The notes: generated by a model not told the origin, from the sequence alone. A DNA stretch of 64,000 bases from an uncultured Alphaproteobacteria bacterium (GCA_902625365.1 CACOAX010000002.1:468-64467), one strand, 5' to 3'; positions 5,345-52,657 are shown, numbered from the stretch's first letter. Numbers and translations are program-made.

Positions 5345-5962
5345 ATGAAACCTAAATATTGGAATAAAGGAAAACAATATTTATCAAATAAAGATAAAGT
5401 TTTGAAGAAGTTAATTCAAACTTATAAAAATGAATATTTAGATCAAAATTCTAATTATTTTCATTCATTAATTAATTCAATAATTGGTCAACAAATATCA
5501 GTATCAGCAGCTGATTCGATGAAAACTAAATTTTTTAAACTTAAAAGAAATATTACACCTCAAACTGTATCTAAATTACGTACTACAGATTTACGAAAAT
5601 GTGGTCTATCAAGGCAAAAAATTTTATATATAAGAAATATTTCTAAATTTTTTTTACAAAACAAGAACTTTATAAAAAATATTAATAAATATTCTGAAGA
5701 AGAAATTTATAATAATTTAATTGAAATTAAAGGAGTAGGGAATTGGACTATTCATATGTTTTTAATGTTTAGTTATGGAAGTTCAAATATTTTTCCAACA
5801 GGTGACTTAGGGTTTTTAAAAGCTATTTCAAAACTTTATAAAGTTAAACTTCCTGTAAGTGAAAGAAAACTTAAATTGCTTTACAAAAAATGGAGTCCGT
5901 ACAGTTCACAAGCTACATGGTATTTATGGAGATCATTAGACCCCATTCCAGTTAATTATTGA
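5345..5962 (+). CDS. HhH-GPD DNA glycosylase (DNA-3-methyladenine glycosylase II-like)
   Basis: 205 aa. The helix-hairpin-helix is LIEIKGVGNWTIHMFLMF followed by PTGDLG. Confidence 0.8.
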   Translation: MKPKYWNKGKQYLSNKDKVLKKLIQTYKNEYLDQNSNYFHSLINSIIGQQISVSAADSMKTKFFKLKRNITPQTVSKLRTTDLRKCGLSRQKILYIRNISKFFLQNKNFIKNINKYSEEEIYNNLIEIKGVGNWTIHMFLMFSYGSSNIFPTGDLGFLKAISKLYKVKLPVSERKLKLLYKKWSPYSSQATWYLWRSLDPIPVNY

Positions 5963-7394
5963 TATTTGCTCCTTGCTCTATCCAAACTTTTAATATCTCT
6001 CTTTCATTTTTTGTAATACCAGTTAGGTTATTCGGAGGCATAATTTCAGCATCAATAGCCTGTGCTTTGATTAATTTTATATTATTTACAATATCTTGAG
6101 CCGTGTCATATACAACTCCTTTTGGTGCCGCTTCAATACCTTCAAAAGTTGGATATTTGGCATGACATGTTCCACATCTGTATTTAATTATATTTTGTAC
6201 TTCATTGAAACTCACTAATTCTAAAGAAAGAGATGCATTTGCATCTTTTTTTTCAAATATTGAAAGACTGCTTAAAGTCATTAAAAAAAACATGATTAAA
6301 CCTGCTGAAGGTAAAATCCAAAATTTATATTGTTTTTTATTTCTTAAATTAAAGTAATGTCGAGTTAAAATGCCAGCTATCGATATAACAGCTAAAATTA
6401 ACCAATTATTTACTGCTCCATATGTAAAAGAAAAATGTGAGCTTATCATGATAAATAAAACTGGTAGTGTAAAATAATTATTATGTATTGATCTGTTTTT
6501 TGCTTCTAATGAAAGATTTAAATTTGGCTTTTGATTGTTTTCAGCTGATGAAACAAGATTTCTTTGTGCAGGAATAATGACTCTAAAAACATTAGCTGCC
6601 ATAATGGTACCAATAATCGCTCCAACATGTATGTATGCAGCTCTTGATCCATAAATTTGAGTCAAAAAATAACTTAATAATACAAATAATAAAAAACCAG
6701 TTGCAATCAAAGTTTGTTCATTATCTTTTAAAACATTTTTACAAAGATAATCATATAGAAGCCAAGATCCTATAAGTAAGAATATAGATATTAATATTGC
6801 TTGAAAGGGTGTTAATATAATACCGCTAGCTCCCAACATCATAGAACTTGCATTTAAATAATAAACTAAAATAAGTAATACAAAACCACTTATCCAAGTT
6901 GCATATGCTTCCCATTTAAACCAATGAAGAACTTTTGGAAGTTTTTTAGGAGGTCCTTTTAATTTTTCAATTCTATAAAACCCACCTGAATGAACAGACC
7001 ATAAATAACCGTCAAGGTGTTTAAAATCTGGATCATCTCTTTCAAGTCTACTATCCAGCCAATTAAAGTAAAATGATGTTCCAATCCACGCTACACCAAC
7101 AATTATATGAACCCATCTAACAATTAAATGTAACCACTCAGAATATACTGCAAATAAAGTTTCTGTTGGAACACCTAAATTATAAAAAGCTGCAGTAAAA
7201 GATATCACTATAGTTGTTGCAATTACAATATAGAGTCTTTGTTCTTTAGATTTTAAACCTGAAAATGCCCCAAGGATAATAAATAATAGTAAACCTAATA
7301 ATGCTGATGCTGGAAGTGATAAAAGTAAATTATGAAAAAAAGTTTGGAAGTCATAAGATTGAACTGGTGCAACAATTTTGAGAAATAATTCCAT
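5952..7394 (-). CDS. puuD: Membrane-bound urate hydroxylase, PuuD type (polytopic domain plus C-terminal cytochrome c)
   Basis: 480 aa, multi-TM, with a C-terminal CGTCH haem c motif encoded at 6162-6176 and a distal MPP. It is last in the xdh operon. Confidence 0.8.
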   Translation of the reverse strand: MELFLKIVAPVQSYDFQTFFHNLLLSLPASALLGLLLFIILGAFSGLKSKEQRLYIVIATTIVISFTAAFYNLGVPTETLFAVYSEWLHLIVRWVHIIVGVAWIGTSFYFNWLDSRLERDDPDFKHLDGYLWSVHSGGFYRIEKLKGPPKKLPKVLHWFKWEAYATWISGFVLLILVYYLNASSMMLGASGIILTPFQAILISIFLLIGSWLLYDYLCKNVLKDNEQTLIATGFLLFVLLSYFLTQIYGSRAAYIHVGAIIGTIMAANVFRVIIPAQRNLVSSAENNQKPNLNLSLEAKNRSIHNNYFTLPVLFIMISSHFSFTYGAVNNWLILAVISIAGILTRHYFNLRNKKQYKFWILPSAGLIMFFLMTLSSLSIFEKKDANASLSLELVSFNEVQNIIKYRCGTCHAKYPTFEGIEAAPKGVVYDTAQDIVNNIKLIKAQAIDAEIMPPNNLTGITKNEREILKVWIEQGANINN

Positions 7395-7395
7395 T

Positions 7396-7863
7396 TTAAT
7401 ATCTTATTTTATTTTCCTCTTTTTCCCAAATATTAAATGCTTTTATTGCTTCGTCACGTGATATTTGACTGATAGGTATTTTTCTTTCTTTAATTTCTAA
7501 TGATAGTTCATCATAAATAAACTTGTCATCAAATTTAATTTTTGCAGCATCCTCTCTAGAATTACCATAATATACTTTGTCTATATGTGACCAATATATC
7601 GCACTTAAGCACATAGGACACGGTTCGCAACTGGAATACAATTCACAACCTTCTAAGTTAAAGGTATTTAATTTTTGACATGCATTTCTAATAGCAACAA
7701 TTTCAGCATGAGCAGTAGGATCATTATTATATGTTACTCTATTTACTCCCTCTGCAATAATTTCATTTTCTTTTACAATTACACATCCAAAAGGGCCCCC
7801 ATTATGTTTGATATTATTAATTGACAGTAAAATAGCTCTTTTCATAAAATCTATATTTGTCAT
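7396..7863 (-). CDS. guaD: Guanine deaminase (cytidine-deaminase fold, GuaD type)
   Basis: 155 aa with HAEIVAIRNA and SSCEPCPMCLSAIYW...DAAKIKFDDKFIYDEL. This closely resembles my recollection of B. subtilis GuaD, and the gene lies in a purine catabolic context. Confidence 0.85.
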   Translation of the reverse strand: MTNIDFMKRAILLSINNIKHNGGPFGCVIVKENEIIAEGVNRVTYNNDPTAHAEIVAIRNACQKLNTFNLEGCELYSSCEPCPMCLSAIYWSHIDKVYYGNSREDAAKIKFDDKFIYDELSLEIKERKIPISQISRDEAIKAFNIWEKEENKIRY

Positions 7864-8690
7864 ATAACTTCTTTAATTTTATTATTTGATAAATGATTTA
7901 AGCTATTTTTTATTGATATTATTCTTGTAATTATTGAGAAAGCTATTTCATTCGGATCTTTTGAATTACCAATATCAATTCCAATCGGACACTCAATTTT
8001 CTCAACTATTGATTGATTGTGACCATTATCAATTAATCTTTTATAAAACCTTTTTTTCTTTGTAAGAGATCCAATTAAACCAACAAAAGTATTATTTTTT
8101 TTCAAAATTTCATTTAATATTTTTAAATCATAATCATGACTGTGAGTTAAGACTATAAAATAAGAATTATCTTCTAGTTTTGATACAATGTCCCAAGGTT
8201 TTTTCGAAAGCAAATAATTTATATCTTTGATATTTGTCATTTTTAAATAATCTTCTCTTGAATCAATCATAAAAGTATTAAAATTGATATTTTCTAATTT
8301 AGAAATTAACGCTTGACCAATATGCCCTGATCCAAAAATATATAAGTTAGGTTTAATATTATTAACAACATATTCATTTTTTAGCGCATCTTTGGAATTA
8401 TTATGTAAGCTTAATTTAACTTGTACGTATCCACCACAACATTGTCCAATTCCTGGCCCAAGCGGAATATTCATTACTTTATTTGCTATATTATTATCAA
8501 TTAATTTTCTCGCTTCATTGATAACTAAATATTCTAAGTTTCCGCCACCGATAGTTCCAAAAATAGTATCAGTTGAGATTAATATAATGTCATCTAAACT
8601 ATTAGGCGATGATCCTTTAACTTCAATAATTTTAGCCTTAACTATTTTACTATTAAAATTTATATTTTTACTTAATTTTTTAAGATACAT
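7860..8690 (-). CDS. xdhC: Xanthine dehydrogenase accessory/maturation protein XdhC
   Basis: 276 aa. It has an XdhC/CoxI-like N-terminus and a Rossmann-like IFGSGHIGQAL, and it lies directly after xdhB. Confidence 0.8.
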   Translation of the reverse strand: MYLKKLSKNINFNSKIVKAKIIEVKGSSPNSLDDIILISTDTIFGTIGGGNLEYLVINEARKLIDNNIANKVMNIPLGPGIGQCCGGYVQVKLSLHNNSKDALKNEYVVNNIKPNLYIFGSGHIGQALISKLENINFNTFMIDSREDYLKMTNIKDINYLLSKKPWDIVSKLEDNSYFIVLTHSHDYDLKILNEILKKNNTFVGLIGSLTKKKRFYKRLIDNGHNQSIVEKIECPIGIDIGNSKDPNEIAFSIITRIISIKNSLNHLSNNKIKEVI

Positions 8691-8691
8691 T

Positions 8692-10965
8692 TTAATGCAA
8701 ACTTTTTAATATATTTTCAGCAGTAGCAGGTGCAATTAAATTTTCAGAATTTTTTCCTTTATTGGCATTATATACTGCATCCTTTAATGCAATAAAACTT
8801 GAAATTGCTAGCATAAATGGTGGCTCTCCAACAGCTTTAGAGCGATTAATAACCTCTTCTTTATTAAAACCACGATCATATATTTCGACATTAAATTTAA
8901 ATGGTGTCTCACCTGCAGTTGGTATTTTATAAGTAGAAGGACTATGAGTTGTTAGAATTCCATTTGATTTCCAAGATACCTCTTCAGTTGTAAGCCAACC
9001 TAATCCCTGAATATAACCACCCTCAATTTGCCCTTTATCAATTCTTTTATTAATAGAATTGCCAACATCATGAATTATATCAACTTGAAGAATTTTATTT
9101 TCACCCGTTAATTTATCAATGATTACTTCAGTTACCGCTGCTCCATAAGTAAAATACAAGAATGGTCTTCCTTGAAGTGTTTTTGTATTTACATTAATTT
9201 TGTCAGTTTTATAGAAACCTGAAGATGACAATGGAATTCTATTTAAGTAAGCAGTATTTATCAATTCTTTAAAAGATATTTTTCTTTTATCAAAATAAAC
9301 AAAATTATTTTCATATTTTATTTTGCTATTTGTTTTAAAATAATCATAGATAAATTCATTTAGACCTGATTTGATATTATTTATAGCATTAACAATTGCT
9401 GCTCCATTTATATCAGTTGTAGCTGATGCGGCACTCGCTGATGTGTTAGGCACTTTTTCTGTATCCGTTGAAGAGATTTTTATATTTTCGTAATTAAGGC
9501 CAAATTCATTTGAAGCCACTAAAGCAAGTTTCGTCATCAATCCTTGACCCATTTCAATTCCTCCATGATTTAAATGAATGGATCCATCAGTGTAGATATG
9601 AACTAATGCACCACCTTGGTTTAAATGAGTAGTTGTAAATGATATTCCAAACTTTACAGGTGTTATTGCTATTCCTTTTTTTAGAACTTTATTTTTTTTG
9701 TTAAAATTATCAATTTCAACTTTTCTTTTTTTGTAATTAGATTTCTTAATTAGTTTATTAAAAATATCTTCAATCACATTGTCAGTAATTCTCATTCCAT
9801 AATGAGTAGTATTTTTAATTTTATCTTTATAAAAATTAATTTTTCTTATTTCACTTGCTTCCAGTTTTAATTTTTGAGCGATATTTTCAATTATATTTTC
9901 AATACAGAACATTCCTTGAGGTCCACCAAATCCACGAAAAGCAGTATTAGAAACAGTATTTGTTTTACATCTATACGAATTAATTTCTATATTCGGTATG
10001 TAGTATGCATTATCGATATGATAAATAGCTCTATCATTTATAGCTCCTGATAAATCTGGAGATATACCACATCTCGATGCCATCATTATCTTTAGAGCAA
10101 GTATTTCACCATTATTATTAAAACCTACTTCATAATCAAATAAAAAATCATGCCTTTTTCCAGTCATGATCATATCATCATCTCTATCAACTCTTAGTTT
10201 TACTGGTTTAGATAACTTTTTTGCTGCAATGCTTGTAATGGCGGCAAATAAAAAAGATTGTGTTTCTTTTCCACCAAAACCTCCACCAATTCTTCTTACG
10301 ATCACATGGATACTATTGTAATTTTGTTTTAGCACCTTACCAATAATTTGCTGTGTTTCTGATGGATGTTGTGTTGAAGAATAAACTAAAAAATTATTAT
10401 CTTCTTGTGGAATAGTCATTGCAATTTGACCTTCTAAATAAAAATGATCTTGACCCCCTGAATACAATTTACCCTTTAAATTGTTGTTAGATTTTTTAAA
10501 CCCATCTTTTATATTTCCCCTAGTTAGATGCTTCGGTTTTAAAACAAATGATTTTTTCTTTAATGCTTCTTCAATTGAAACTATCGGTTTAGATATTTTT
10601 AAGTCTATTTTTACTTTTAATGCAGCTTTTTTTGCTAAATTATTGGTCTTTGCTATAACTGCAAAAATTGGTTGCCCATAATATTCTATATTTTTTGAAG
10701 TAAATATTTTATCTCCCTTAAATATTGGCCCAACATCATTTATACCCTCAATGTCTTTTTCAGTAATAATGTCTACTACACCTTCTGAAGATAAAACATC
10801 TTTATAATCAATTTTTTTTATTACTCCTTTACTACAATTACTGTATCCAATTACTGCGTGAAGTAAATTTTTAGGCTCTGATATATCATCAGTATAAATT
10901 GCTTTTCCAGTAACATGTTTTACTGCACTTTCATGTTCAATATTTTTTGTAAATATTTTATCCAT
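8692..10965 (-). CDS. xdhB: Xanthine dehydrogenase, molybdopterin-binding subunit
   Basis: 757 aa with GGGFGGKE, AFRGFGGPQG and ELGQG-like GIEMGQGL motifs of the xanthine oxidase family. Confidence 0.93.
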   Translation of the reverse strand: MDKIFTKNIEHESAVKHVTGKAIYTDDISEPKNLLHAVIGYSNCSKGVIKKIDYKDVLSSEGVVDIITEKDIEGINDVGPIFKGDKIFTSKNIEYYGQPIFAVIAKTNNLAKKAALKVKIDLKISKPIVSIEEALKKKSFVLKPKHLTRGNIKDGFKKSNNNLKGKLYSGGQDHFYLEGQIAMTIPQEDNNFLVYSSTQHPSETQQIIGKVLKQNYNSIHVIVRRIGGGFGGKETQSFLFAAITSIAAKKLSKPVKLRVDRDDDMIMTGKRHDFLFDYEVGFNNNGEILALKIMMASRCGISPDLSGAINDRAIYHIDNAYYIPNIEINSYRCKTNTVSNTAFRGFGGPQGMFCIENIIENIAQKLKLEASEIRKINFYKDKIKNTTHYGMRITDNVIEDIFNKLIKKSNYKKRKVEIDNFNKKNKVLKKGIAITPVKFGISFTTTHLNQGGALVHIYTDGSIHLNHGGIEMGQGLMTKLALVASNEFGLNYENIKISSTDTEKVPNTSASAASATTDINGAAIVNAINNIKSGLNEFIYDYFKTNSKIKYENNFVYFDKRKISFKELINTAYLNRIPLSSSGFYKTDKINVNTKTLQGRPFLYFTYGAAVTEVIIDKLTGENKILQVDIIHDVGNSINKRIDKGQIEGGYIQGLGWLTTEEVSWKSNGILTTHSPSTYKIPTAGETPFKFNVEIYDRGFNKEEVINRSKAVGEPPFMLAISSFIALKDAVYNANKGKNSENLIAPATAENILKSLH

Positions 10966-12380
10966 TAATATAATGTTGATTTAATTTTATTATTTTCATT
11001 TAAAAACCTCTCTAAAAGGTTTTGACTAATTATAGTTCTATAATTTTTTGACGCTCTCATATCATCTATTGGATCAAATTCTTTTTTAATAATTTTCTTT
11101 GCTTCATTAATATTTTCTTCATTAAATATTTTATTCAATAAAAATTTTTGTGCCTTTTCAGCTATTTTTGGAGTTTCTGCTAAACCTCCACAAACAATTT
11201 TTATTTCTTTAATAATATTTTTTTCAATCCTAGCATTTATAGCCATGAAAACAGAACTTATGTCATCATCTATTCTTTTTGAAATTTTATAACATTTAAG
11301 AATATTTTTTTTATAAATGGGTATTATAATTTCTTTAATTATTTCATTAGGTTTTAATTTTGTTTTTCGATAGCTGAGAAAATAATTATCCAATAATAAA
11401 GTTTTTTTAACTTTTCCTTGAATAACAATTTTACTATTGAGTGCAATTAATACAGGCAAACTATCACCTATTGGAGATGCGCTTCCAATGTTACCTCCAA
11501 GAGAAGCAGTATTTCTTATTTGCTCAGATCCGTATCTTTCAAACATTTTAGCAAATGTTGGATAAATATTTTCTAAAATTGGTAAAATATCATTTATGGG
11601 AGTAGCGGATCCAATGTGTAAATTATTGTTTTTATTTTTAATATAATTTAAATCTTTATTTGATCCTAAATAAAAAATATTTTTTAAATCTTTTCTTTTT
11701 TTTGTTACTTCAAGAGCGAGATCTGTACCTCCGACTAGTAAATGTCCATTACTAATCTTTTGATAGTCTTCTATTAGAGAATTTAAATTATAATGGATGA
11801 AAAACTTAGAATCATTTTTTTTAATAACAATATCAGTTTTCTTAATTGATTTTAATAATCTGATAACTTTACTTTTTGAAAATTTATCACTTTTATAGCT
11901 ATACATATTTTTAATTGCATTTTTAATTGGAAGATAACCTGTGCATCTACATAAATTTCCAGAAAGAAATTTATCGATATTTTCTTCTGTTGGTTTAATT
12001 TTGTTTTCGTACATATTATACATTGACATAATAATACCAGGTGTACAAAAACCACATTGAGATCCATCACTATCAATCATTGATTGTTGAACAGGATGAA
12101 GTTTATTTTTTTTTATATGTTCAACCGTTATTAATTGCTTGCCATGTAGAGAATACAAAAAAGTAATACAAGTATTTATACTTTTATAAGAAATTTTATT
12201 CTCTTTTAATTCTCCTACAACTGCAGTACATGCTCCGCAATCACCAGATGCGCAACCTTCTTTTGTTCCAGTTAACTCATGATTATTTCGAAGATAATTT
12301 AAGACCGTTGTATTTGTATCTAAATCTTTGATAGATATTTTTTCTTCATTCAGGAGAAAATAGACATGTGCTATAGACAC
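10965..12380 (-). CDS. xdhA: Xanthine dehydrogenase, Fe-S/FAD-binding subunit
   Basis: 471 aa. Two 2Fe-2S motifs are present (CASGDCGACT, CGFCTPG...CRCTGY), followed by an FAD-binding domain (GGTDL). Confidence 0.93.
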   Translation of the reverse strand: MSIAHVYFLLNEEKISIKDLDTNTTVLNYLRNNHELTGTKEGCASGDCGACTAVVGELKENKISYKSINTCITFLYSLHGKQLITVEHIKKNKLHPVQQSMIDSDGSQCGFCTPGIIMSMYNMYENKIKPTEENIDKFLSGNLCRCTGYLPIKNAIKNMYSYKSDKFSKSKVIRLLKSIKKTDIVIKKNDSKFFIHYNLNSLIEDYQKISNGHLLVGGTDLALEVTKKRKDLKNIFYLGSNKDLNYIKNKNNNLHIGSATPINDILPILENIYPTFAKMFERYGSEQIRNTASLGGNIGSASPIGDSLPVLIALNSKIVIQGKVKKTLLLDNYFLSYRKTKLKPNEIIKEIIIPIYKKNILKCYKISKRIDDDISSVFMAINARIEKNIIKEIKIVCGGLAETPKIAEKAQKFLLNKIFNEENINEAKKIIKKEFDPIDDMRASKNYRTIISQNLLERFLNENNKIKSTLY

Positions 12381-45544: not shown

Positions 45545-46132
45545 GTGAAAATTAATTATTATTTACTATATTTTATTGTTTTATTGTATTCACCATTTTC
45601 CTTATCAAATGAACATATTGAGTACGATGATTGGATTAAAAATGAAATTTTCTCAAAAAATTTAATAAAAAAAATTGATAATTTAATTAATTTAAAAGTT
45701 AATTCTAAAACTCAAAGTGAAAACCAAGCAAAAAAAATAAAAAAAATAATTATTTCAAATTTAAACTTTATTGCTAATTATCAAAATCAATATAAAAATT
45801 TAAGATCATTTTGTAGTAATCAAATTGGTGAAATAAATTTTGAATATTTTTTACTTGTTGAGAATTGTATCGAAAATAAAGATAAAAAATTAATGAATGA
45901 ATATTCATTATCTGAATTTGAATTTAATAATACCAAAAGTTTATTATTTGATAATGCAGAAAAATTTAAAATCAAATTTATTAGTTTGCATTCGCACGAA
46001 GTTAAAAAAGAAAACTATGATATAATAATGAAAAATTATAAAAATAATATTGAAGAAATAAACTATAAAATATTTGAAGATCAATTTAATATTTTATTAA
46101 TATATTTAGAAAATAAATATAAATTAAATTAA
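45545..46132 (+). CDS. Hypothetical exported protein (N/K-rich)
   Basis: 195 aa with a GTG start and a signal-like N-terminus. No motif recognised. Confidence 0.5.
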   Translation: MKINYYLLYFIVLLYSPFSLSNEHIEYDDWIKNEIFSKNLIKKIDNLINLKVNSKTQSENQAKKIKKIIISNLNFIANYQNQYKNLRSFCSNQIGEINFEYFLLVENCIENKDKKLMNEYSLSEFEFNNTKSLLFDNAEKFKIKFISLHSHEVKKENYDIIMKNYKNNIEEINYKIFEDQFNILLIYLENKYKLN

Positions 46133-46137
46133 TATTT

Positions 46138-46701
46138 ATGAAATTATATTTAATTAGACACGCTGAGTCTGAAGCTAACGCAGCATCAGATTTAGATAAT
46201 CCAACTTATTATTATGATGCAAGAATTACTCAAAGAGGAGTTGTGCAAGCAAAAAAATTAAATAATAGAATTAAAAATCTCAAATTTGATAATTATTTTT
46301 GTTCCCCCTTAACAAGAACATTGGAAACATTCTCTATTGTTTTTCCATCTAATAAACCTGTAATTGAACCTTTAATAAGAGAGCATTTGTACCACTCATG
46401 TGATGTAGGAAGACAACCAAAAAAATTAAAAAAAGAATTTAATAATTTTGATTTTAATAATTTAAATAATTTTTGGTGGAATAATAACAAACCTATTAAT
46501 GAAAAAAAAATTATACAAGAGTCTCACAATGATATTAAAATGAGATTAAGGTCTTTTCTGCTAACTATCAAAAACCTTAATTTACAAAAAATTGTATTAG
46601 TCAGTCATGGTACATTCTTAAGTCAAATAACTGAATATATGCTGGATAACTGTGAGGTATATGATTGTGAGTACAATGAGGTATACGAAAAATTCTTTTA
46701 A
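46138..46701 (+). CDS. Histidine phosphatase superfamily protein (phosphoglycerate mutase-like)
   Basis: 187 aa with the N-terminal LIRHAESEAN (RHG motif) and a distal SHG. Confidence 0.8.
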   Translation: MKLYLIRHAESEANAASDLDNPTYYYDARITQRGVVQAKKLNNRIKNLKFDNYFCSPLTRTLETFSIVFPSNKPVIEPLIREHLYHSCDVGRQPKKLKKEFNNFDFNNLNNFWWNNNKPINEKKIIQESHNDIKMRLRSFLLTIKNLNLQKIVLVSHGTFLSQITEYMLDNCEVYDCEYNEVYEKFF

Positions 46702-46724
46702 TTTAATTCTTAATAAATAATAAA

Positions 46725-47492
46725 CTAAAACATCTCATTTATTATTTTATTTAATTTTTGTGTTACTCTATCAATTATTTTTTTTCCTATCAGAGTATTG
46801 GACTTTGTAGGGTCTCCAATAATTCCACTTTTACTTAATTCTTTAGTTACCCAAGTTTTCTTAATATTTTTCTCATAAGAAATGGTTTTAGATGATAAAT
46901 AATCGGGAGATAATGTATGTTTAGAAATTTTAGATTGCCTAACTAGGTTTGGAAATAAATATAACATAATAGATGTTTCAAATTCTCCACCGTGATAACC
47001 AAAGTCTTTTTCTTTACTTGATATAATTCCTTTAAATTGATCAAATAAAAAATATGTGCCTTTTACTATGTTTATCTTAAATTCTGATTTCAATTCTTTA
47101 GCAATAATATCTATATGGCTAATTTGTCCACCATGACTATTTAAAAGTAATATATTTTTAAATTTCAATTTACATACATTTTCTAAAATTGATAAAGAGT
47201 GCGATATAAATTCCAATGAATCAATACTTATTGTTCCATCAAAATCCGCATGTTCAGCAGCTGAACCAAAATATATTTCAGGCATAATTAAATATTTATT
47301 TGAATTATATTTTTTATTGAATTCTAATAATATTCCTTCAAGAATTTTTTTATCAGTATTTAAAGGAAGATGCGGACCGTGCTGTTCTATTGATGAAAAT
47401 GGGAAAATTAAAACTGTTTTTCTATTTATTTTTTTAATTTCATTTGTTGTTAATTCTTCCCAAAAGTTTGTTAGCATTTTTTTATTATACAT
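46725..47492 (-). CDS. Creatininase-fold amidohydrolase
   Basis: 255 aa with SIEQHGPHLPLNTD, NSHGGQ and HGGEFETS metal-site motifs of the creatininase family. That family also contains the archaeal formamide hydrolase ArfB. Confidence 0.85.
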   Translation of the reverse strand: MYNKKMLTNFWEELTTNEIKKINRKTVLIFPFSSIEQHGPHLPLNTDKKILEGILLEFNKKYNSNKYLIMPEIYFGSAAEHADFDGTISIDSLEFISHSLSILENVCKLKFKNILLLNSHGGQISHIDIIAKELKSEFKINIVKGTYFLFDQFKGIISSKEKDFGYHGGEFETSIMLYLFPNLVRQSKISKHTLSPDYLSSKTISYEKNIKKTWVTKELSKSGIIGDPTKSNTLIGKKIIDRVTQKLNKIINEMF

Positions 47493-47505
47493 TTATAAGT
47501 AAATT

Positions 47506-48465
47506 ATGAAATCTTATTCTTTATGGATTGATAAAAAAAAACAAGCTAAAATTTATCAAAAAAAACTTATTTACAATAAAAATAACAAAACAGTTTTAGT
47601 TAAAACTATTTACTCAGGTATTAGCAAGGGAACTGAAAAATTAGTTTCATCTAAAAGCATAAGTAAGGATCAATTTGAATTAATGAAAGCCCCTTTTCAA
47701 GAGGGTTCTTTTAATTTACCTATAAAATACGGTTATATAAATGTTGGGAATATTATTGATGGTCCAAGGAAATATATAAATAAAAAAATATTTAGTCTTT
47801 ATCCTCATCAAGATTTATATGAAATTTCTATTCACAATTTAATTTTTCTACCAAAAGGAAATTTGAGAAAATATATTCTAACTGCAAATATGGAAACAGC
47901 AATTAATATCTTTTGGGACGCTCAATCTAAAAGTAATAACAAAATTCTAATTGTAGGGCTTGGCTCTGTAGGAATATTAACTGCATTTTTTTTTAAAATT
48001 AATGGATATAAAAATGTTTATGTTTTTGATAATAATAAAAATAAAAGAAAAATTGCCAATTATTTAGGATTCAATTTTATTGATATAAGAAAGATTGAGA
48101 AAATAGATGTAGCAATAAACACTACAGCTAATTATAAAGTTTTAAATTCTTTAATGGAAAAATTATCTATCGAAGGAAAAATAGTAGAAGCTAGTTGGTA
48201 TGGTAAAAATAAAGGAGAAGTTGCCTTGGGCGGGTATTTTCATTCTAAAAGATTAAAAATTATTAGCTCACAGGTATCTAAAATACCAAAATACATGAAA
48301 AATAAATATGATTTTGAGGGGAGATTAAAATTAGCAATTAAATCTTTAAAAAATTCAAAATTAGAAAAATTAATTACTAGTGAAAGTAATTTTTTTGATT
48401 TAGAAAAAGATTACTATAAAATCCTTCAAAATAAGGACACAATAATGCATCTAGTTAAATATTAA
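47506..48465 (+). CDS. Medium-chain dehydrogenase/reductase-like oxidoreductase lacking the usual zinc cysteines
   Basis: 319 aa with a GroES-like N-terminus and a Rossmann motif VGLGSVG. SGISKGTE replaces the canonical GxCGSD zinc site. Confidence 0.7.
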   Translation: MKSYSLWIDKKKQAKIYQKKLIYNKNNKTVLVKTIYSGISKGTEKLVSSKSISKDQFELMKAPFQEGSFNLPIKYGYINVGNIIDGPRKYINKKIFSLYPHQDLYEISIHNLIFLPKGNLRKYILTANMETAINIFWDAQSKSNNKILIVGLGSVGILTAFFFKINGYKNVYVFDNNKNKRKIANYLGFNFIDIRKIEKIDVAINTTANYKVLNSLMEKLSIEGKIVEASWYGKNKGEVALGGYFHSKRLKIISSQVSKIPKYMKNKYDFEGRLKLAIKSLKNSKLEKLITSESNFFDLEKDYYKILQNKDTIMHLVKY

Positions 48466-48467
48466 TT

Positions 48468-48866
48468 ATGTATTCGATAAAAGTAAGAGAAAATATTCTA
48501 ATAGCTCATTCTTTACCTGGAGAAGTATTTGGACCAGCTCAAAATATGCATGGAGCTACATATTTAGTAGATGCAGAATTTTTCACTGATAAAATTAATA
48601 AATACAATATAATTATGGATTTAGGAATAGTGTCCACAACTTTAAAAGATGTTCTTAAAATATATAATTATCAAAATTTAGATGAAATTGATGAATTTAA
48701 GGGAAAAATTACCTCAACAGAGTTTCTAGCAGAGGATATTTGCAATAAGATCTTGAATAGACTAAGAAATGAATTCTCTGAAGATTACAAATCTTTAAAA
48801 AAAATTAAAATAACCTTGCAAGAATCAAATGTTGCATGGGCATCATATGAAAAAGAGGTTATCTAA
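48468..48866 (+). CDS. 6-pyruvoyl-tetrahydropterin synthase/QueD-fold protein with a degenerate active site
   Basis: 132 aa. IAHSLPG......NMHGATY parallels the PTPS AAH....C..LHGH.Y wording, but the Cys and the last His are missing. Confidence 0.7.
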   Translation: MYSIKVRENILIAHSLPGEVFGPAQNMHGATYLVDAEFFTDKINKYNIIMDLGIVSTTLKDVLKIYNYQNLDEIDEFKGKITSTEFLAEDICNKILNRLRNEFSEDYKSLKKIKITLQESNVAWASYEKEVI

Positions 48867-49893
48867 AAATAAATCTGATATTTATTTTGTCTATCCAGGA
48901 AATATTAATGCAAAAACTGGAGGATATATTTATGAAAAAAATATCCTAGAATATGCAAAGATAAGAGATATAAATATTAGATCAATTGCTCTAAGTGAAA
49001 ATTATCCTTTTCCTACAAATAACGATATAAAATATTTTCTTAAAATTTTAGATAAAATTGATCCTCACTCTAAAATTATTATAGATGGATTAGCTTTAGA
49101 AGGAATGTATTCAATTTTTAAAAAAATACTTACTTATAATGTTATCGCGCTAATACATCATCCATTATATCTTGAATTTAAAGGTCAAAGGTCAAAAAAA
49201 TTCTTACGATTAGAAAAAGAAAATTTCAAAAAAATAAATAAATTTATTGTGACTTCTAAAAATACAAAAAATTTATTAATAAATGAATTTAAGGTACTAA
49301 ATAATAAAATTTATGTAGTTGAACCTGGTATAGAAAGACTTGCAAAATATAATTTTAAAAATAATAGGAAAATTCATTTTTTAACATGTGGAAGTATAAT
49401 AAATAGAAAAAATTATCTTTTTTTATTAAAAGTTCTAAAGCCTTTAGATAATTTTATTTTAGAAATTATTGGTGATACTACAAGAGATATAAGTTATTAC
49501 AAAAAACTCAAAAAATTTATTTCTAAAAATTCAATGAACAGAAAAATAATATTCCATGGCACTATTTCAGATACAAAATTAGCTAAATTATATTCTAAAA
49601 CAGATTGTTACATTTCGGTAAGTAAATATGAAGGTTTTGGTATGTCTTTAGCAAATGCATTAATAATTAAAAAGCCAATTATAACCTATTTTACTAATAC
49701 TATCTTAAATACACTAGGAAAAAAAGGTGTTATTTATTTCAAAAAATTTGAAGTAAATGATCTTAGGAAAATAATTATTAAAAATATATTAAATAAAAAA
49801 AATTTTAAAAAACTAAATATTGATATTCATAAAAATAAAAGATATCTTCTTACTCCTCTAGAGTCTGCTAAGAAATTTGTTAAATTAATTTAA
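48847..49893 (+). CDS. Group-1 (GT4-like) glycosyltransferase
   Basis: I trimmed to the ATG at 48847. The C-terminal half has SKYEGFGMSLANALIIKKPII, a GT1 E-x7-E-like region. Confidence 0.75.
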   Translation: MKKRLSKNKSDIYFVYPGNINAKTGGYIYEKNILEYAKIRDINIRSIALSENYPFPTNNDIKYFLKILDKIDPHSKIIIDGLALEGMYSIFKKILTYNVIALIHHPLYLEFKGQRSKKFLRLEKENFKKINKFIVTSKNTKNLLINEFKVLNNKIYVVEPGIERLAKYNFKNNRKIHFLTCGSIINRKNYLFLLKVLKPLDNFILEIIGDTTRDISYYKKLKKFISKNSMNRKIIFHGTISDTKLAKLYSKTDCYISVSKYEGFGMSLANALIIKKPIITYFTNTILNTLGKKGVIYFKKFEVNDLRKIIIKNILNKKNFKKLNIDIHKNKRYLLTPLESAKKFVKLI

Positions 49894-49894
49894 T

Positions 49895-50707
49895 ATGCAT
49901 GAATTTCAAAATAAATGGTTAAATCTTAGAGAAACTGTCGATAGAAATTCAAGAAACAAAAGAATACTATATTTAATTAATAAATTTTTTAAAAATAAAA
50001 AAAATATTAGAATAGTTGACTTAGGTTCTGGTGCTGGATCTAATTATAGATTTCTTAAGTCACGATTATTAAATAATCAATATTGGTCTTTTGTAGATAT
50101 ATCACATAAATCAACAAATTATTTTAAAAAAAATATAAAATTATCATCTAAAATAAAAAAAAATAATTTTAAAATTGTTGATGTAATTAATAATCTAGAA
50201 AAAATAAATTTTAATGATTATAATTTAGTTACAGGATCTGCTTTTTTAGATATTCTTCCAAAAACATGGTTTAAAAATTTTTATAAATTTAATGTTGATA
50301 CAGAAATTGTCTACTTTGCCTTAAATTATAACGGTAATTTTAAATTTTTTCCAAAACACAAGGATGATAAAAAAATTCTTAATATTTTTAATAAAGATCA
50401 AAAATCTGACAAAGGAATAGGGGAATTGGCCGTTGGACCAGATTGCACTAAATTAATAAATAAAGTATTTAAAAGGACTCACAAAACATATGTTTTAGAC
50501 TCTACATGGGATGTTAGTAAAAATTATGAATTTCAAATTTATTTCTTAAATTTTTGTAGAGAAATTATTCAAAAAAATAAACTTAACTTTGATGATTGGT
50601 TAAAATTTCGTTTAAAAAATATTAAAGAAAAAAATTCTAGATTTATTTTAAATAATAAAGATTTTTTAGCTATTAAGAAAAAAATTAACAATAAATTCAT
50701 TTTCTAA
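49895..50707 (+). CDS. Class I SAM-dependent methyltransferase
   Basis: 270 aa with motif I IVDLGSGAGSN and motif post-I FVDIS. Confidence 0.7.
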   Translation: MHEFQNKWLNLRETVDRNSRNKRILYLINKFFKNKKNIRIVDLGSGAGSNYRFLKSRLLNNQYWSFVDISHKSTNYFKKNIKLSSKIKKNNFKIVDVINNLEKINFNDYNLVTGSAFLDILPKTWFKNFYKFNVDTEIVYFALNYNGNFKFFPKHKDDKKILNIFNKDQKSDKGIGELAVGPDCTKLINKVFKRTHKTYVLDSTWDVSKNYEFQIYFLNFCREIIQKNKLNFDDWLKFRLKNIKEKNSRFILNNKDFLAIKKKINNKFIF

Positions 50708-51499
50708 TTCATTAAAATTATATTTTGGTCTGATAGCTTTATTGAGATTTGAAATTTCTTTTAAATTCAATGAATTAATTCCAGAACCTATTAATATTGG
50801 GGCAATCATTAATTGAAGAATATCAATATATTTATTATTTATTAATTCTGAAATAGTTTTTGATCCTCCCTCTACTAAAATATTTTTATATTTAAGTTTT
50901 TTAATTTGTGTAATTAAGTTTTTAGTAAAATTTTTTTCTTTTAATTTAATTATCGTTGAATTATTCAATTTAATATTTTTATTACTTTTTGTAAAAATTA
51001 TATTTTCATTACCGTCATTAAAAATTTTATATTTGTTATTTAGCGAAAGACTGCCATCAATAATAATTCTTTTTGGATTTGTGCCCTTTATTCTTCTTGT
51101 TGTTAATAGTGGATCGTCTTTTTTAATAGTATTTGAGCCCACAATAATCGCATCACTGATACTTCGTAAACAATGAAGATAAATAATACTCTTGGGATTA
51201 TTTATATAATGTGAATTACCATTATTTAACGCAATTCTACCATCAATACTTTGTCCTATCTGAGCTATAACTAATTTTTTGTTTTTTCTTAGAATCGGGA
51301 CAAGGATATTTAAGATTGATTGATAAAATTTACTTATATTAATTTTGGATTCCAGATTATTATTTTTTATGTAAAAGTTACTTTTTCTTTTTGATGATAA
51401 AGAAATACTATTTTTTTTAACCAATAAATATAAATCACTATTCTTTTTAGAATTTTTTATAAAATCTAGTAAAATTCCTATATTTTTTGATGTAATCAT
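50666..51499 (-). CDS. RibD C-terminal-domain reductase (no deaminase domain)
   Basis: 277 aa with AQIGQSIDGRIA, DAIIVGSNTIKKDDPLLT and VEGGSKT typical of RibD_C/DHFR-like reductases. About 70 extra residues sit at the N-terminus. Confidence 0.8.
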   Translation of the reverse strand: MITSKNIGILLDFIKNSKKNSDLYLLVKKNSISLSSKRKSNFYIKNNNLESKINISKFYQSILNILVPILRKNKKLVIAQIGQSIDGRIALNNGNSHYINNPKSIIYLHCLRSISDAIIVGSNTIKKDDPLLTTRRIKGTNPKRIIIDGSLSLNNKYKIFNDGNENIIFTKSNKNIKLNNSTIIKLKEKNFTKNLITQIKKLKYKNILVEGGSKTISELINNKYIDILQLMIAPILIGSGINSLNLKEISNLNKAIRPKYNFNELENEFIVNFFLNS

Positions 51500-51535
51500 T
51501 TGTTTTTATTGCAATTATATCTATATAAAGTTTTC

Positions 51536-52657
51536 ATGAGTTTCAAATCTAATACAGGAACTATAATAGATAGGGCAATTAATGAACTCAGGACCGGAAG
51601 ACCCTTAATAATTCAGAATAACAAGGAATATTGGATGTTCTTTAATATAGAGCATTCCCAAAGTAAAATTTTTAATCAATTCAATAAGCACTTAATTGAT
51701 GAAAAATACCTTCTTATCACTAAACAAAAAGCTCAATCAATTTTTAATAAGAATGTTAAAAGTAATACTTATTTTGAGATACATCCCAAAACAGATGTAA
51801 ATCAAATAATAAATTTATTTGTCAATCCTCTTAGCAATAATAAAGTAATTAAATTTACCAATATTAAAAAATTCAAAGCTAAAAATTTTCATAATGTTTG
51901 TATTGATCTTTCCAAAAATGCTAAAATGATACCATCGCTAGTTTTTAAAAAAATTAATAAAAAACATTACAAAAATATAAATGAATTTGGATTTAAAAAT
52001 GGAATTTTAATATTCGATTACAAAGATTTATTGAAGCAAAATGAATTAATTTGTGAAAGTATCAAATTAGTTTCCAGTGCAAAAGTTCCACTACCAAAAA
52101 ATGAAAATTCTAATTTTAAAATATTTAAATCATATATTGGATCTGATAAACATGTAGCGATAATTGTAAATCCAAAAAAAATAAATAAAAAATCTGTTAA
52201 TTTAAGAATACATTCAGCTTGTTTTACAGGTGATATTTTTCACTCTTTAAAATGTGATTGCGGTGAACAGTTAAATCAATCAATCAATTACATGGTTAGA
52301 AATAATGGTGGAATTATATTATATTTAGAACAAGAAGGTAGAGGAATAGGATTAGCTAACAAAATGAGAGCCTATTCTCTTCAAGCAAGAGGTATGGATA
52401 CAATAGACGCCGATCATAATATTGGTTTTTTAGATGATGAAAGAGATTTTAATATTGCAGCTAGAATACTTAAATTATTAAAAATAAATAAAGTTAATCT
52501 TATTACAAATAATAAAAGTAAAATAAATTCTATTAAGAAAGCTGGAATTAAAGTCGAAAATCAAATTAATACAAAGCCAACCTTGAATAAATTTAATAAA
52601 AATTATTTTAAAACAAGAGTTAAAAAAGCCGGATATGGTCTTAAACTAGTAGTATAA
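51536..52657 (+). CDS. GTP cyclohydrolase II with an additional N-terminal (degenerate RibB-like) domain
   Basis: The C-terminal half has IHSACFTGD, LKCDCG (zinc Cys triad), EGRGIGLANKMRAYSLQ and DERDF. I prefer the ATG at 51536 to the TTG at 51500. Confidence 0.88.
   Translation: MSFKSNTGTIIDRAINELRTGRPLIIQNNKEYWMFFNIEHSQSKIFNQFNKHLIDEKYLLITKQKAQSIFNKNVKSNTYFEIHPKTDVNQIINLFVNPLSNNKVIKFTNIKKFKAKNFHNVCIDLSKNAKMIPSLVFKKINKKHYKNINEFGFKNGILIFDYKDLLKQNELICESIKLVSSAKVPLPKNENSNFKIFKSYIGSDKHVAIIVNPKKINKKSVNLRIHSACFTGDIFHSLKCDCGEQLNQSINYMVRNNGGIILYLEQEGRGIGLANKMRAYSLQARGMDTIDADHNIGFLDDERDFNIAARILKLLKINKVNLITNNKSKINSIKKAGIKVENQINTKPTLNKFNKNYFKTRVKKAGYGLKLVV

Follow-up and report, generated by a model that had tools for sequence, protein, structure and literature searches.

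Gene content and layout of the locus

SAR11, the most abundant bacterium of the ocean, has a streamlined genome. In the 64-kb stretch of SAR11 DNA analysed here, referred to throughout as the window, seven genes lie close together: those for a creatininase-family amidohydrolase, an MDR oxidoreductase, a PTPS-like T-fold protein, a GT4 glycosyltransferase, a SAM-dependent methyltransferase, a RibD_C-only reductase and a long-form GTP cyclohydrolase II (GCH II) (Table 1). A sequence-only reading had proposed these seven ORFs; all were found at their claimed coordinates, and Pfam and NCBIfam scans bear out the seven families. The two divergent spacers that it described are likewise exact, 13 bp between the creatininase and MDR genes (47493-47505) and 36 bp between the RibD_C and GCH II genes (51500-51535), the latter provided that GCH II starts at ATG 51536, the position at which its homologues (373 aa) start. 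Homologues of the GT4 protein begin at the second Met, 48847, and the second ATG is probably the start of that gene. At its 3' end the methyltransferase gene shares 42 nt with the convergent RibD_C gene.

Table 1. Coordinates, strand and family evidence for the seven genes and the flanking phosphatase gene
Feature	Position	Strand	Evidence
Histidine phosphatase (His_Phos_1)	46138-46701	+	Pfam 8e-22
Creatininase-family amidohydrolase	46725-47492	-	Pfam PF02633 1.6e-53
Zinc-less MDR oxidoreductase, polyol-dehydrogenase branch	47506-48465	+	Weak ADH_zinc_N/Glu_dehyd_C matches, BchC-like match
PTPS-IV subfamily T-fold protein (SCO6650-like)	48468-48866	+	Pfam PTPS 3.3e-20
GT4 glycosyltransferase (Glycos_transf_1)	48847-49893	+	Pfam 9e-19; ORF open from 48829
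Class I SAM-dependent methyltransferase	49895-50707	+	Weak Pfam matches: MTS, Methyltransf_25/31
RibD_C-only pyrimidine reductase	50666-51499	-	Pfam PF01872 2.1e-31
Long-form GTP cyclohydrolase II	51536-52657	+	Pfam PF00925 (GTP_cyclohydro2) 1.8e-48; ORF open from 51500

Features of the encoded proteins

In GCH II, about 190 additional N-terminal residues precede the GTP_cyclohydro2 domain, and the protein matches PRK08815 of NCBIfam over its full length, below cut-off. The extra N-terminal domain noticed earlier is thus present, and in an AlphaFold model compared by Foldseek it adopts the DHBP-synthase fold (RibB structures at E ~1e-5, TM ~0.6); its sequence, read directly, lacks the RENEGD and GHTE motifs, and on the model the domain is best described as a degenerate RibB-like domain. 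The C-terminal domain of the model matches E. coli RibA (2bz0, TM 0.90), and equivalents of the catalytic residues Cys54/65/67, Tyr105 and Arg128 are all there. The creatininase-family protein retains the metal-ligand motifs EQHGPH...D, SHGG and HGGEFETS and gives a weak NCBIfam match to ArfB (3e-7), making it a candidate formamidopyrimidine (AFRPP) deformylase or other amide hydrolase. A bacterial AFRPP formamidase of the creatininase family, BrbF, has been characterised (PMC9478397).

The reductase is a RibD_C-only protein by Pfam, confirming that it has no deaminase domain, and carries an N-terminal extension of about 75 aa. It matches the ribD_Cterm and archaeal reductase models of NCBIfam, both below cut-off, and the RibD, MjaRED and Rib7 reductases in the PDB. 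All seven aligned cluster homologues (the window, L005, L006, L079, L080, L082 and L083) share the motif AQIGQS[IL]DGR, and its invariant Gln aligns with Lys152 of E. coli RibD and Lys151 of the B. subtilis enzyme. In bacterial RibD this Lys selects the deaminated substrate. At the same position fungi have Thr and archaea have Asn, and both reduce the non-deaminated 2,5-diamino-6-ribosylamino-pyrimidinone 5'-phosphate (DARoPP) (PMC3631187).

A profile of the MDR family takes in 238 clusters (50% identity) at E<1e-30. At the zinc-ligand positions of the protein, GIS-GTE stands in place of GIC-GTD and KYGY in place of GHE, so that the usual zinc cysteines are indeed replaced; GxGxxG is retained. 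Its best PDB profile matches are L-iditol 2-dehydrogenase, butanediol dehydrogenase, idonate 5-dehydrogenase, sorbitol dehydrogenase and galactitol-1-P 5-dehydrogenase, and S. aureus TarJ is among the Foldseek neighbours of its AlphaFold2 model (pLDDT 96), along with threonine, xylitol and arabinitol dehydrogenases. Profile and fold comparisons alike place the protein with polyol and secondary-alcohol dehydrogenases, TarJ among them. TarJ interconverts ribitol-5-P and ribulose-5-P at C2.

The PTPS-like protein had been described as having a degenerate active site, a description that proved wrong. Ala stands in for its third zinc His (HGA), and it has neither the catalytic Cys nor the Asp-His pair. 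Its C-terminal ES.VA motif still has the conserved Glu with which T-fold enzymes bind the 2-amino-4-oxo face of their substrates. The protein matches PDB 3D7J ('Uncharacterized protein SCO6650') over its full length (E 1.1e-33) and carries the FGPAQ signature that defines PTPS-IV (PMC5445326). Judged by its sequence, it is a member of PTPS-IV, a distinct and strongly conserved subfamily of COG0720 that has a name and no assigned function, and its interpretation as merely a degenerate copy was rejected.

Among solved structures, the closest relatives of the GT4 family are the sucrose-phosphate synthase Tll1590, MshA (the inositol-3-phosphate GlcNAc transferase), BshA and PimA/PimB; in the SAR11 copies the second Glu of the EX7E motif is Asn. 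The methyltransferase has its motif I, VDLGSGAG.

Two flanking genes had been named as possible members of the cluster. The histidine phosphatase, which has the RHAES and SHG motifs and whose best NCBIfam matches are alpha-ribazole-phosphate phosphatase-like and under cut-off, stands on either side of the block depending on the SAR11 lineage, upstream of the creatininase gene in the window, L058 and L084 and downstream of GCH II in L006, L066 and L070, and in five other loci (L080, L082, L085, L086 and L094) an IMPase-family phosphatase takes its place. It therefore probably belongs to the cluster and is the probable pathway phosphatase for the 5'-phosphate. The Bcp peroxiredoxin adjoins the block only in close relatives, and its membership was not upheld.

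Conservation and spread of the cluster

All seven genes occur together in at least 55 of 71 SAR11-type species genomes or loci, those short of the full set being cut by contig ends, and the order of the block is unchanged in divergent SAR11 lineages despite different flanking contexts. The core of the cluster, consisting of the zinc-less MDR, the PTPS-like T-fold protein, the SAM methyltransferase and RibD_C, usually with GT4 and GCH II added, was found again in 15 loci outside SAR11, which represent three classes or phyla (Alphaproteobacteria, Gammaproteobacteria and Actinomycetota) and are often plasmid-borne. In these loci MDR, PTPS-IV and the methyltransferase are each present in 15/15, RibD_C in 14/15, GT4 in 11 or 12 and GCH II in 8, and the methyltransferase gene follows that for PTPS-IV or GT4 in every case. 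The earlier suggestion that similar gene sets occur in other Alphaproteobacteria was therefore correct and extends to other classes and phyla, with the families kept together in SAR11 and, as a core, in distant taxa.

Copies on accessory plasmids were found in Agrobacterium, Peteryoungia, Palleronia, Methylosinus, Thiodictyon, Streptomyces and Microbacterium. As the plasmids of the first three genera carry the cluster together with its own GCH II, the cluster is accessory there, and the co-localisation of the gene set across distant taxa, including such plasmids, rules out 'just housekeeping rib genes' as an explanation for the family as a whole.

The cluster is thus real, widely conserved and still uncharacterised. 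The novelty implied earlier was overstated: the SCO6650 structure had been published, as had a neighbourhood network tying PTPS-IV to PF00925 and PF01872, the GCH II and RibD_C families (PMC5445326). With that link already in the literature, the cluster is a known unknown.

A proposed pathway from GTP

That the cluster encodes a dedicated, non-riboflavin PTPS-IV pathway starting from GTP is quite probable, and the earlier proposal of such a tailoring pathway gains support from the reductase, with its Gln and without a deaminase, from the co-localisation in distant taxa and on plasmids, from the similar sets of other Alphaproteobacteria and beyond, and from the histidine phosphatase. The specific chemistry set out here, a split-Amadori route to a pterin, is put forward tentatively, at rather less than even chances, and each of its steps is an inference from sequence, structure models or comparison. 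Long-form GCH II, with its catalytic residues in place, would open GTP to DARoPP, and the creatininase-family hydrolase may deformylate any AFRPP released, a role suggested by analogy with BrbF and ArfB and by the pairing of a Met-type GCH II with a creatininase in a Streptomyces cluster. The Gln-type RibD_C, to judge from its specificity residue, would then reduce the ribosyl chain to ribityl without prior deamination. The zinc-less MDR would re-oxidise the ribityl 2'-OH, giving a 1-deoxy-ribulosyl-amine, the same compound as the Amadori product; ring closure of this intermediate at the 5-amino group could then yield a 7,8-dihydroneopterin-3'-phosphate-like pterin, to be bound or processed by PTPS-IV. 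The product may subsequently be methylated by the SAM methyltransferase, glycosylated on its phosphorylated side chain by GT4 and relieved of its phosphate by the histidine phosphatase.

Reduction followed by oxidation is favoured by the kinship of the MDR with polyol dehydrogenases and TarJ and by a single RibD_C-MDR fusion protein (P0322), one metagenomic sequence found on two short contigs. Experiments with Chlamydia RibA and TrpF showed that, given an Amadori-type step, the GCH II product can go on to dihydroneopterin monophosphate (PMC4161248). The placing of GT4 before the phosphatase is favoured by its relatives sucrose-phosphate synthase and MshA, which act on phosphorylated polyols or sugars, a phosphatase then following, and by the recurrence of a phosphatase gene beside the cluster. 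Other observations pull the opposite way. The long-form GCH II is also encoded singly in other marine Alphaproteobacteria, away from any cluster, so the SAR11 copy may act as the housekeeping ribA, solely or in addition, and PTPS-IV has been linked in print to F420 synthesis on the basis of unpublished work (PMC5041015). With Tyr105, the SAR11 GCH II should release DARoPP directly, leaving the creatininase without an obvious substrate, and the Streptomyces fungicidicus cluster has no RibD_C within 9 kb, which weakens the case for an obligatory reduction-then-oxidation. The loss of the zinc triad and catalytic Cys from PTPS-IV and the change to Asn in the SAR11 EX7E motif also speak against the pathway.

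Alternative readings

The early steps would be identical, from GCH II to the Gln-type RibD_C with no deaminase, if the ribityl chain were kept, as the sequence-only reading had it. The diaminopyrimidinone ribitide would then either undergo tailoring as it is or condense into an 8-ribityl-pterin or lumazine-like ring, with the MDR acting elsewhere on the chain or ring and a methylated ribityl-heterocycle glycoside as the product. Some polyol-dehydrogenase relatives of the MDR oxidise a position different from C2 (idonate 5-dehydrogenase, arabinitol 4-dehydrogenase, galactitol-1-P 5-dehydrogenase), and a ribityl phosphate suits the logic of GT4 and phosphatase equally well; however, a supplier of the four-carbon or dicarbonyl unit (a functional DHBP synthase or a lumazine-synthase-like protein) occurs in none of the 16 cluster contexts, and we regard this version as doubtful. 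The genes that accompany the cluster outside SAR11 suggest a phospholipid head group or periplasmic decoration instead, which a CDP-alcohol phosphatidyltransferase (in 9 of the 15 loci) would attach to lipid, an LPG_synthase_TM flippase-like protein (5) would move outward and a sulfatase-family transferase (5) would pass to glucans or other acceptors; cytochrome b561 (6 of 15) and the MdoH/MdoG glucan genes (3 of 15) are further companions. The window has no such gene and the divergent SAR11 copies have none within 10 kb, so this reading, improbable in our judgement, would hold for the SAR11 locus only if the genes stand elsewhere in the genome.

Two further readings tie the locus to flavin or deazaflavin synthesis. 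It is very improbable that GCH II, a split RibD reductase and a BrbF-type formamidase are simply the ordinary early riboflavin genes beside unrelated tailoring genes, despite the essential role of BrbF in riboflavin synthesis in Sinorhizobium and Brucella (PMC9478397) and despite the solitary position of the long-form GCH II in related Alphaproteobacteria, as expected of a housekeeping gene. The window has no further rib genes, as this reading would have it, but the tblastn searches behind that statement (deaminase domain, ribB, ribH and ribE) and an Rfam search for an FMN riboswitch, all negative within the 64 kb, equally uphold the claim that the locus is not the riboflavin operon. The reductase, moreover, has Gln in place of the Lys typical of bacterial RibD and no deaminase partner nearby, the only deaminase-fold gene of the window (7396-7863) lying 39 kb off in a xanthine-dehydrogenase operon, and in 14 of the 15 distant loci, many on dispensable plasmids, RibD_C travels with MDR, PTPS-IV and the methyltransferase. 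That the cluster feeds deazaflavin (FO/F420) synthesis, by supplying or modifying the ribitylaminopyrimidine precursor, has slighter prospects still: PTPS-IV has been placed in F420 synthesis on the strength of unpublished work (Zallot et al. 2016, PMC5041015), and an F420-dependent PPOX-class oxidoreductase is encoded two genes from the Streptomyces fungicidicus cluster. Yet FO synthase and the F420 tail enzymes, sought by annotation or Pfam family, are absent from all 16 contexts, and the reductase residue and the T-fold Glu both indicate a 2-amino substrate, not the deaminated uracil form that FO synthesis takes. SAR11 is not known to make F420.

Comparison with known systems

The nearest counterpart of the PTPS-IV protein belongs to the SCO6650 locus of Streptomyces coelicolor (3D7J), whose own function is likewise uncharacterised. 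A plasmid cluster of Streptomyces fungicidicus shares the MDR-PTPS-GT4-methyltransferase order and, alone among the clusters outside SAR11, has a creatininase gene, divergent from ribA. This ribA encodes a short, Met-type enzyme, whereas the SAR11 GCH II is long-form and of the Tyr type; Met-type GCH II, as Spoonamore and Bandarian reportedly found in 2008, releases formamidopyrimidine. Unlike the SAR11 cluster, the Streptomyces locus also includes genes for a CDP-alcohol phosphatidyltransferase and a flippase-like protein, and it has no RibD_C nearby.

The toxoflavin cluster offers a precedent for a secondary-metabolite cluster with its own GCH II (ToxB), RibD-type enzyme (ToxE) and SAM methyltransferase (ToxA), as here, but ToxE keeps its deaminase domain, PTPS-IV, MDR and GT4 are missing, and the triazine product derives from the uracil form. 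The archaeal ArfA/ArfB/ArfC and fungal Rib1/Rib7 pathways resemble the proposed route in opening the GTP ring, in reducing the ribosyl group before deamination, in a separate formamide hydrolase step and in reductases without the bacterial Lys, in whose place archaea have Asn, fungi Thr and the SAR11 cluster Gln. They go on, however, to deamination, lumazine synthase and riboflavin synthase, none of which the SAR11 cluster has; its creatininase matches ArfB only weakly, and its cyclohydrolase is of type II, not type III. BrbF (SMc02977/Bab2_0247) is an alphaproteobacterial creatininase-family protein that acts just after GTP ring opening, a likeness at the family level, but it serves housekeeping riboflavin synthesis and adjoins marR and cobW-like genes, not this cluster.

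The folate bypass of Chlamydia (RibA and TrpF) passes from the GCH II product to a pterin through an Amadori-type intermediate without GTP cyclohydrolase I, and the hypothetical route proposed here would share that intermediate; Chlamydia uses one isomerase and directs the product to folate, whereas the SAR11 cluster would use two redox enzymes, RibD_C and then MDR, and tailor the product. Sucrose-phosphate synthase, with its phosphatase, and MshA of mycothiol synthesis are the closest solved structures to the cluster GT4, and a dedicated phosphatase recurs nearby; identities are low, however, and the SAR11 EX7E motif is altered.

Taken as a whole, the locus is probably the SAR11 version of a widespread PTPS-IV cluster of the SCO6650 kind, which would convert GTP to a tailored molecule retaining the 2-amino-4-oxo-pyrimidine face of guanine; it is not a riboflavin operon. 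Its product is most likely a methylated, sugar-bearing small molecule of the pterin or pyrimidine type rather than riboflavin.

Gene content and layout of the block

The seven ORFs, their families and the divergent spacers of exactly 13 bp and 36 bp described in the sequence-only reading were all confirmed, the families by an HMM scan with Pfam and NCBIfam. The genes lie in a very AT-rich window (mean G+C 26.8%) and are themselves lower in G+C (19-27% over 46001-52000) than the neighboring sucC and sucD (33-35%). No NCBIfam equivalog model reached its cut-off for six of the seven proteins; the exception, the GTP cyclohydrolase II (GCH II), passed only the subfamily-level RibA model NF001591. 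A promoter and terminator scan was uninformative in such AT-rich DNA, in which promoter-like matches were fewer than in shuffled controls.

Features of the block, its surroundings and related loci
Sequence	Feature	Position	Strand	Basis or remark
Window	Xanthine dehydrogenase operon	5952-12380	minus	includes two large upstream ORFs
Window	Deaminase-fold ORF	7396-7863		155-aa CDA-fold protein, adjoins xdhC
Window	XdhC	7860-8690
Window	195-aa ORF	45545-46132		between sucD and histidine phosphatase
Window	Creatininase	46725-47492	minus	Pfam/NCBIfam
Window	MDR oxidoreductase	47506-48465		weak ADH_zinc_N and BchC-like scores at most
Window	PTPS	48468-48866		Pfam/NCBIfam
Window	Glycos_transf_1/GT4	48829-49893 (ORF)		start probably 48847; Pfam/NCBIfam
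Window	Class I SAM methyltransferase	49895-50707		Pfam/NCBIfam
Window	RibD_C-only protein	50666-51499	minus	Pfam/NCBIfam
Window	GCH II	start at ATG 51536		start as in 373-aa homologs; ~190 extra N-terminal residues
Window	Methyltransferase/RibD_C 3' overlap	50666-50707		42 nt
Agrobacterium (L093)	Methyltransferase/RibD_C 3' overlap	11165-11236		72 nt
Peteryoungia (L096)	Methyltransferase/RibD_C 3' overlap	10219-10263		45 nt
Rhodobacterales plasmid (L094)	PfkB/ribokinase-family kinase	9997-10887
Rhodobacterales plasmid (L097)	PfkB/ribokinase-family kinase	5834-6754

The view that this is not the riboflavin operon is also supported, as the locus has no deaminase domain, no reductase lysine, no RibH, RibE or functional DHBP synthase, and no FMN riboswitch. 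E. coli RibB, RibH and RibE found no tblastn match in the window or in any related locus, Rfam found no FMN riboswitch in the window, and no further ribA or ribD genes occur within it. The sole deaminase-fold ORF of the window lies 39 kb away in the xanthine dehydrogenase operon; the idea that it supplies the deaminase half of a split RibD was rejected because it adjoins xdhC and resembles TadA and guanine deaminases. Of these identities, guanine deaminase is more probable than TadA or RibD.

Catalytic and specificity residues

The GCH II aligns with E. coli RibA over the motifs HSACFTGD, KCDCG, MRAY and DERDF, retaining its three zinc cysteines, Tyr105 and Arg128, and the model of its C-terminal domain superposes on 2bz0 with a TM-score of 0.90. 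Judged from the sequence, its catalytic residues are intact and activity is predicted. The N-terminal domain adopts a DHBP-synthase fold (E ~1e-5 and TM ~0.6 against RibB structures; profile matches weak) and carries neither the acidic RENEGD loop nor the GHTE motif, which makes the enzyme a RibBA-type protein whose RibB half is dead and bears out the original description of an extra domain without DHBP synthase function. The long form of GCH II also occurs alone, outside the cluster, in other marine Alphaproteobacteria.

The reductase is truly related to the pyrimidine reductases of riboflavin synthesis, and, as first described, it has no deaminase domain: Pfam and NCBIfam find RibD_C alone, at residues 77-243, and the N-terminal extension is not a deaminase. 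At the position of E. coli Lys152 (B. subtilis Lys151), glutamine is found in the window protein and in six other aligned cluster homologs, within a motif, AQIGQS[IL]DGR, that is invariant among them. Lysine at this position favors the deaminated substrate, fungal and archaeal enzymes with Thr and Asn, respectively, reduce the non-deaminated DAROPP, and a Thr-to-Lys swap in yeast Rib7 shifts substrate preference (PMC3631187).

The MDR oxidoreductase lacks the usual zinc cysteines, as the alignment confirms: Ser takes the place of Cys (GISKGTE) and Tyr-Gly-Tyr that of His-Glu, so that of the characteristic motifs the Rossmann GLGSVG alone is kept. The zinc-less protein is nonetheless highly conserved. 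A profile built from its family comes closest to L-iditol 2-, butanediol, idonate 5-, sorbitol and galactitol-1-phosphate 5-dehydrogenases, and its AlphaFold model (pLDDT 96) retrieves the same group together with S. aureus TarJ; profile and fold thus place it in the polyol-dehydrogenase branch, but not as a standard zinc enzyme. One metagenomic protein of 648 aa (P0322), seen on two short contigs only, fuses RibD_C (residues 122-312) to a cluster-type MDR (residues 356-627), which is consistent with consecutive action of these two enzymes.

The PTPS-like protein had been called degenerate, a description that must be revised, for it belongs to a conserved subfamily, PTPS-IV. It matches the Streptomyces coelicolor structure 3D7J ('Uncharacterized protein SCO6650') with an E-value of 1e-33, falls below the cut-off of the QueD and 6PTHBS models, and contains VFGPAQNMHGA, conserved in all homologs aligned. 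Against E. coli QueD and rat PTPS, its third zinc His is Ala, no Cys or Glu precedes HG, and DH has become Y-x-N; the residues that stand in for the zinc His, for the catalytic Cys and for the Asp-His pair are themselves conserved. The C-terminal ES.VA motif retains its conserved Glu, the residue with which T-fold enzymes bind the substrate's 2-amino-4-oxo face. The SCO6650 structure was reportedly released about 2008, and the family has been a recognized orphan for the 18 years since. In the published classification, FGPAQ is the PTPS-IV signature, standing in place of CxxxHGH, CxxxxxHGH or ExxHGH, and a neighborhood-network study placed PTPS-IV proteins near PF00925 and PF01872 (PMC5445326). 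Both families lie less than 3 kb from PTPS-IV in the window and recur in related loci. The study labels PF00925 'GTP cyclohydrolase I/FolE2', whereas PF00925 is in fact GTP cyclohydrolase II, and as a result the published PTPS-IV neighborhood was misread as folate-related (PMC5445326).

The nearest solved relatives of the GT4 are sucrose-phosphate synthase, MshA, BshA and PimA/PimB, which places it among enzymes whose acceptors are phosphorylated. The first Glu of its EX7E motif is present; the second is Asn in SAR11 copies (YEGFGMSLANA in the window, L005 and L006) and is kept as Glu in all GC-rich homologs. The creatininase has the family fold and metal-ligand motifs, and scores 30 bits with the ArfB model against a cut-off of 180.

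Conservation in SAR11 and flanking genes

The window locus is 96-98% identical to dozens of single-cell genomes labeled Pelagibacteraceae or uncultured Alphaproteobacteria, which identifies its source as a SAR11-type bacterium. In a profile scan of the genome collection with a four-sequence MDR alignment, 71 of the 77 distinct loci came from near-identical SAR11 genomes. All seven genes are present in at least 55 of the 71 SAR11-type loci (one per species-level genome), the remainder being cut by contig ends. Lineages of just 55-70% identity hold the same gene order amid unrelated flanks.

Of the flanking genes proposed as possible members, the histidine phosphatase gains support, since it is found on the upstream side in three loci (the window, L058 and L084) and downstream of GCH II in three others (L006, L066 and L070), and its presence on either side in different lineages argues for membership. 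Bcp does not, as it adjoins the block in close relatives only. EamA transporters were set aside because of inconsistent adjacency. The 195-aa ORF, which is of 15.5% G+C and has a hydrophobic N-terminus and no Pfam match, was also set aside: it occurs in only 3 related loci and so looks strain-variable.

The cluster outside SAR11

The earlier suggestion that similar gene sets occur in other Alphaproteobacteria is borne out and extended, for the core recurs in 15 non-SAR11 loci. They belong to Roseovarius, two Hyphomicrobiales MAGs, Aestuariibius, a proteobacterial MAG, Ruegeria and L086 (GCA_043513715.1), and, on plasmids, to Methylosinus OB3b, Thiodictyon (Gammaproteobacteria), Streptomyces fungicidicus, Microbacterium, Agrobacterium, Peteryoungia, Palleronia and one Rhodobacteraceae strain. 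SAR11, Rhizobiaceae, Methylosinus and Microbacterium share the order MDR-PTPS-GT4-methyltransferase followed by convergent RibD_C, and the 3' ends often overlap; the overlaps in SAR11, Agrobacterium and Peteryoungia indicate that the methyltransferase/RibD_C arrangement is conserved across orders.

Occurrence of gene families in the 15 non-SAR11 loci
Family	Loci	Remark
MDR	15/15
PTPS-IV	15/15
Methyltransferase	15/15
RibD_C	14/15
GT4	11-12/15
CDP-alcohol phosphatidyltransferase	9/15
GCH II	8/15
Cytochrome b561	6/15
IMPase-family phosphatase	5/15
Sulfatase-family protein	5/15	LtaS/EptA/MdoB-like
LPG_synthase_TM protein	5/15	flippase-like
FkbM methyltransferase	3/15
MdoH/MdoG glucan genes	3/15	L079, L080, L089
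Creatininase	1/15	Streptomyces

Outside SAR11 the cluster usually has membrane-linked additions, which are found at L080, L082, L083, L085, L090, L091, L092, L093 and L096. Together these neighbors look like the logic of making a phospholipid head group, flipping it and handing it to a periplasmic acceptor, and their recurrence suggests that the product ends up linked to lipid or in the periplasm. No such accessory genes occur in the window or close to the divergent copies in SAR11, which thus has a stripped, apparently soluble version whose own additions are the creatininase and the histidine phosphatase.

Two further arrangements were noted on plasmids. A PfkB/ribokinase-family kinase adjoins the cluster on two Rhodobacterales plasmids, and lone PTPS-IV paralogs, with the rest of the cluster absent, reside on Streptomyces plasmids (L088, L095, L098) beside MEKHLA-domain, cupin, MBL-fold and discoidin-domain genes.

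A proposed route from GTP

These findings support the earlier interpretation in its main lines, and the locus probably encodes a dedicated, non-riboflavin PTPS-IV pathway that starts from GTP. The sequence itself supplies catalytic and specificity residues, family placements and a phosphatase as a recurring neighbor; how the pathway proceeds is a matter for proposal at every step. In one possible though doubtful scheme, GCH II would open GTP to the non-deaminated product DARoPP, with the creatininase clearing any formylated intermediate, and RibD_C would reduce DARoPP to its ribityl form. The MDR would then oxidize the ribityl 2'-OH, by analogy with TarJ and iditol 2-dehydrogenase acting on comparable polyols. 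Together, the reduction at C1' and the later oxidation at C2' would be the net equivalent of an Amadori rearrangement, and the resulting 2'-keto compound should close onto the 5-amino group, yielding a pterin resembling dihydroneopterin-3'-phosphate that PTPS-IV, the methyltransferase, the GT4 and the phosphatase might then tailor. A precedent for reaching a pterin by way of GCH II exists in Chlamydia, in which GTP is converted to dihydroneopterin monophosphate by RibA and a promiscuous TrpF, the latter supplying the Amadori rearrangement (PMC4161248).

The sequence-only reading instead had the ribityl chain retained in the product, and this version is about equally likely. Several observations sit awkwardly with the proposal. 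The Streptomyces locus, at which a creatininase stands beside a ribA with Met for Tyr105, has no RibD_C within 9 kb and does not fit; nor does the Asn that replaces the second EX7E Glu in the SAR11 GT4. The SAR11 GCH II is of the Tyr type, which leaves its creatininase without an obvious substrate. The S. coelicolor ribA paralog SCO6655, located near SCO6650, was reportedly shown to release the formamidopyrimidine because Met replaces Tyr. In Sinorhizobium and Brucella, the creatininase-family formamidase BrbF deformylates the formamidopyrimidine AFRPP during riboflavin synthesis (PMC9478397).

Significance

Full-text searches that combined the family names yielded no paper characterizing this gene set, and a SAR11 core-genome paper contains nothing on riboflavin or pterins. 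Among four published items that bear on it is a remark, citing unpublished work, that links PTPS-IV to F420 synthesis (Zallot et al. 2016, PMC5041015). The cluster family to which the locus adds a variant had been recognized before, though no function was assigned to it; what makes the locus interesting is its host, how broadly the genes are conserved and the evidence pointing to specific, cheap experiments. The Gln-type reductase, the MDR resembling polyol dehydrogenases, the logic of GT4 plus phosphatase and the membrane genes that recur outside SAR11 lead to a concrete order of reactions, and cluster hosts such as Agrobacterium, Ruegeria and Methylosinus are genetically tractable. The RefSeq and GenBank records examined use 6-carboxytetrahydropterin synthase (queuosine) for PTPS-IV, 'RibD family protein' for the reductase and 'zinc-binding alcohol dehydrogenase' for the MDR; the PTPS-IV and MDR names are wrong or doubtful, and that of the reductase misleadingly implies a riboflavin enzyme. 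Recognition of the cluster guards against such mis-annotation.

Few known genomes are as streamlined as those of SAR11. That dozens of SAR11 species keep the block intact implies that the cells probably depend on the GTP-derived compound. An unlikely reading is that SAR11 and many other bacteria make a pterin-like compound independently of GCH I, by GCH II, a Gln-type RibD reductase and a zinc-less polyol dehydrogenase, the latter two replacing the Amadori rearrangement, and that most non-SAR11 lineages couple it to a phospholipid or export it to the periplasm, where a cytochrome b561 could exchange electrons with it. If this is true, the compound would be a new membrane- or periplasm-associated redox group, and PTPS-IV would finally gain a function.
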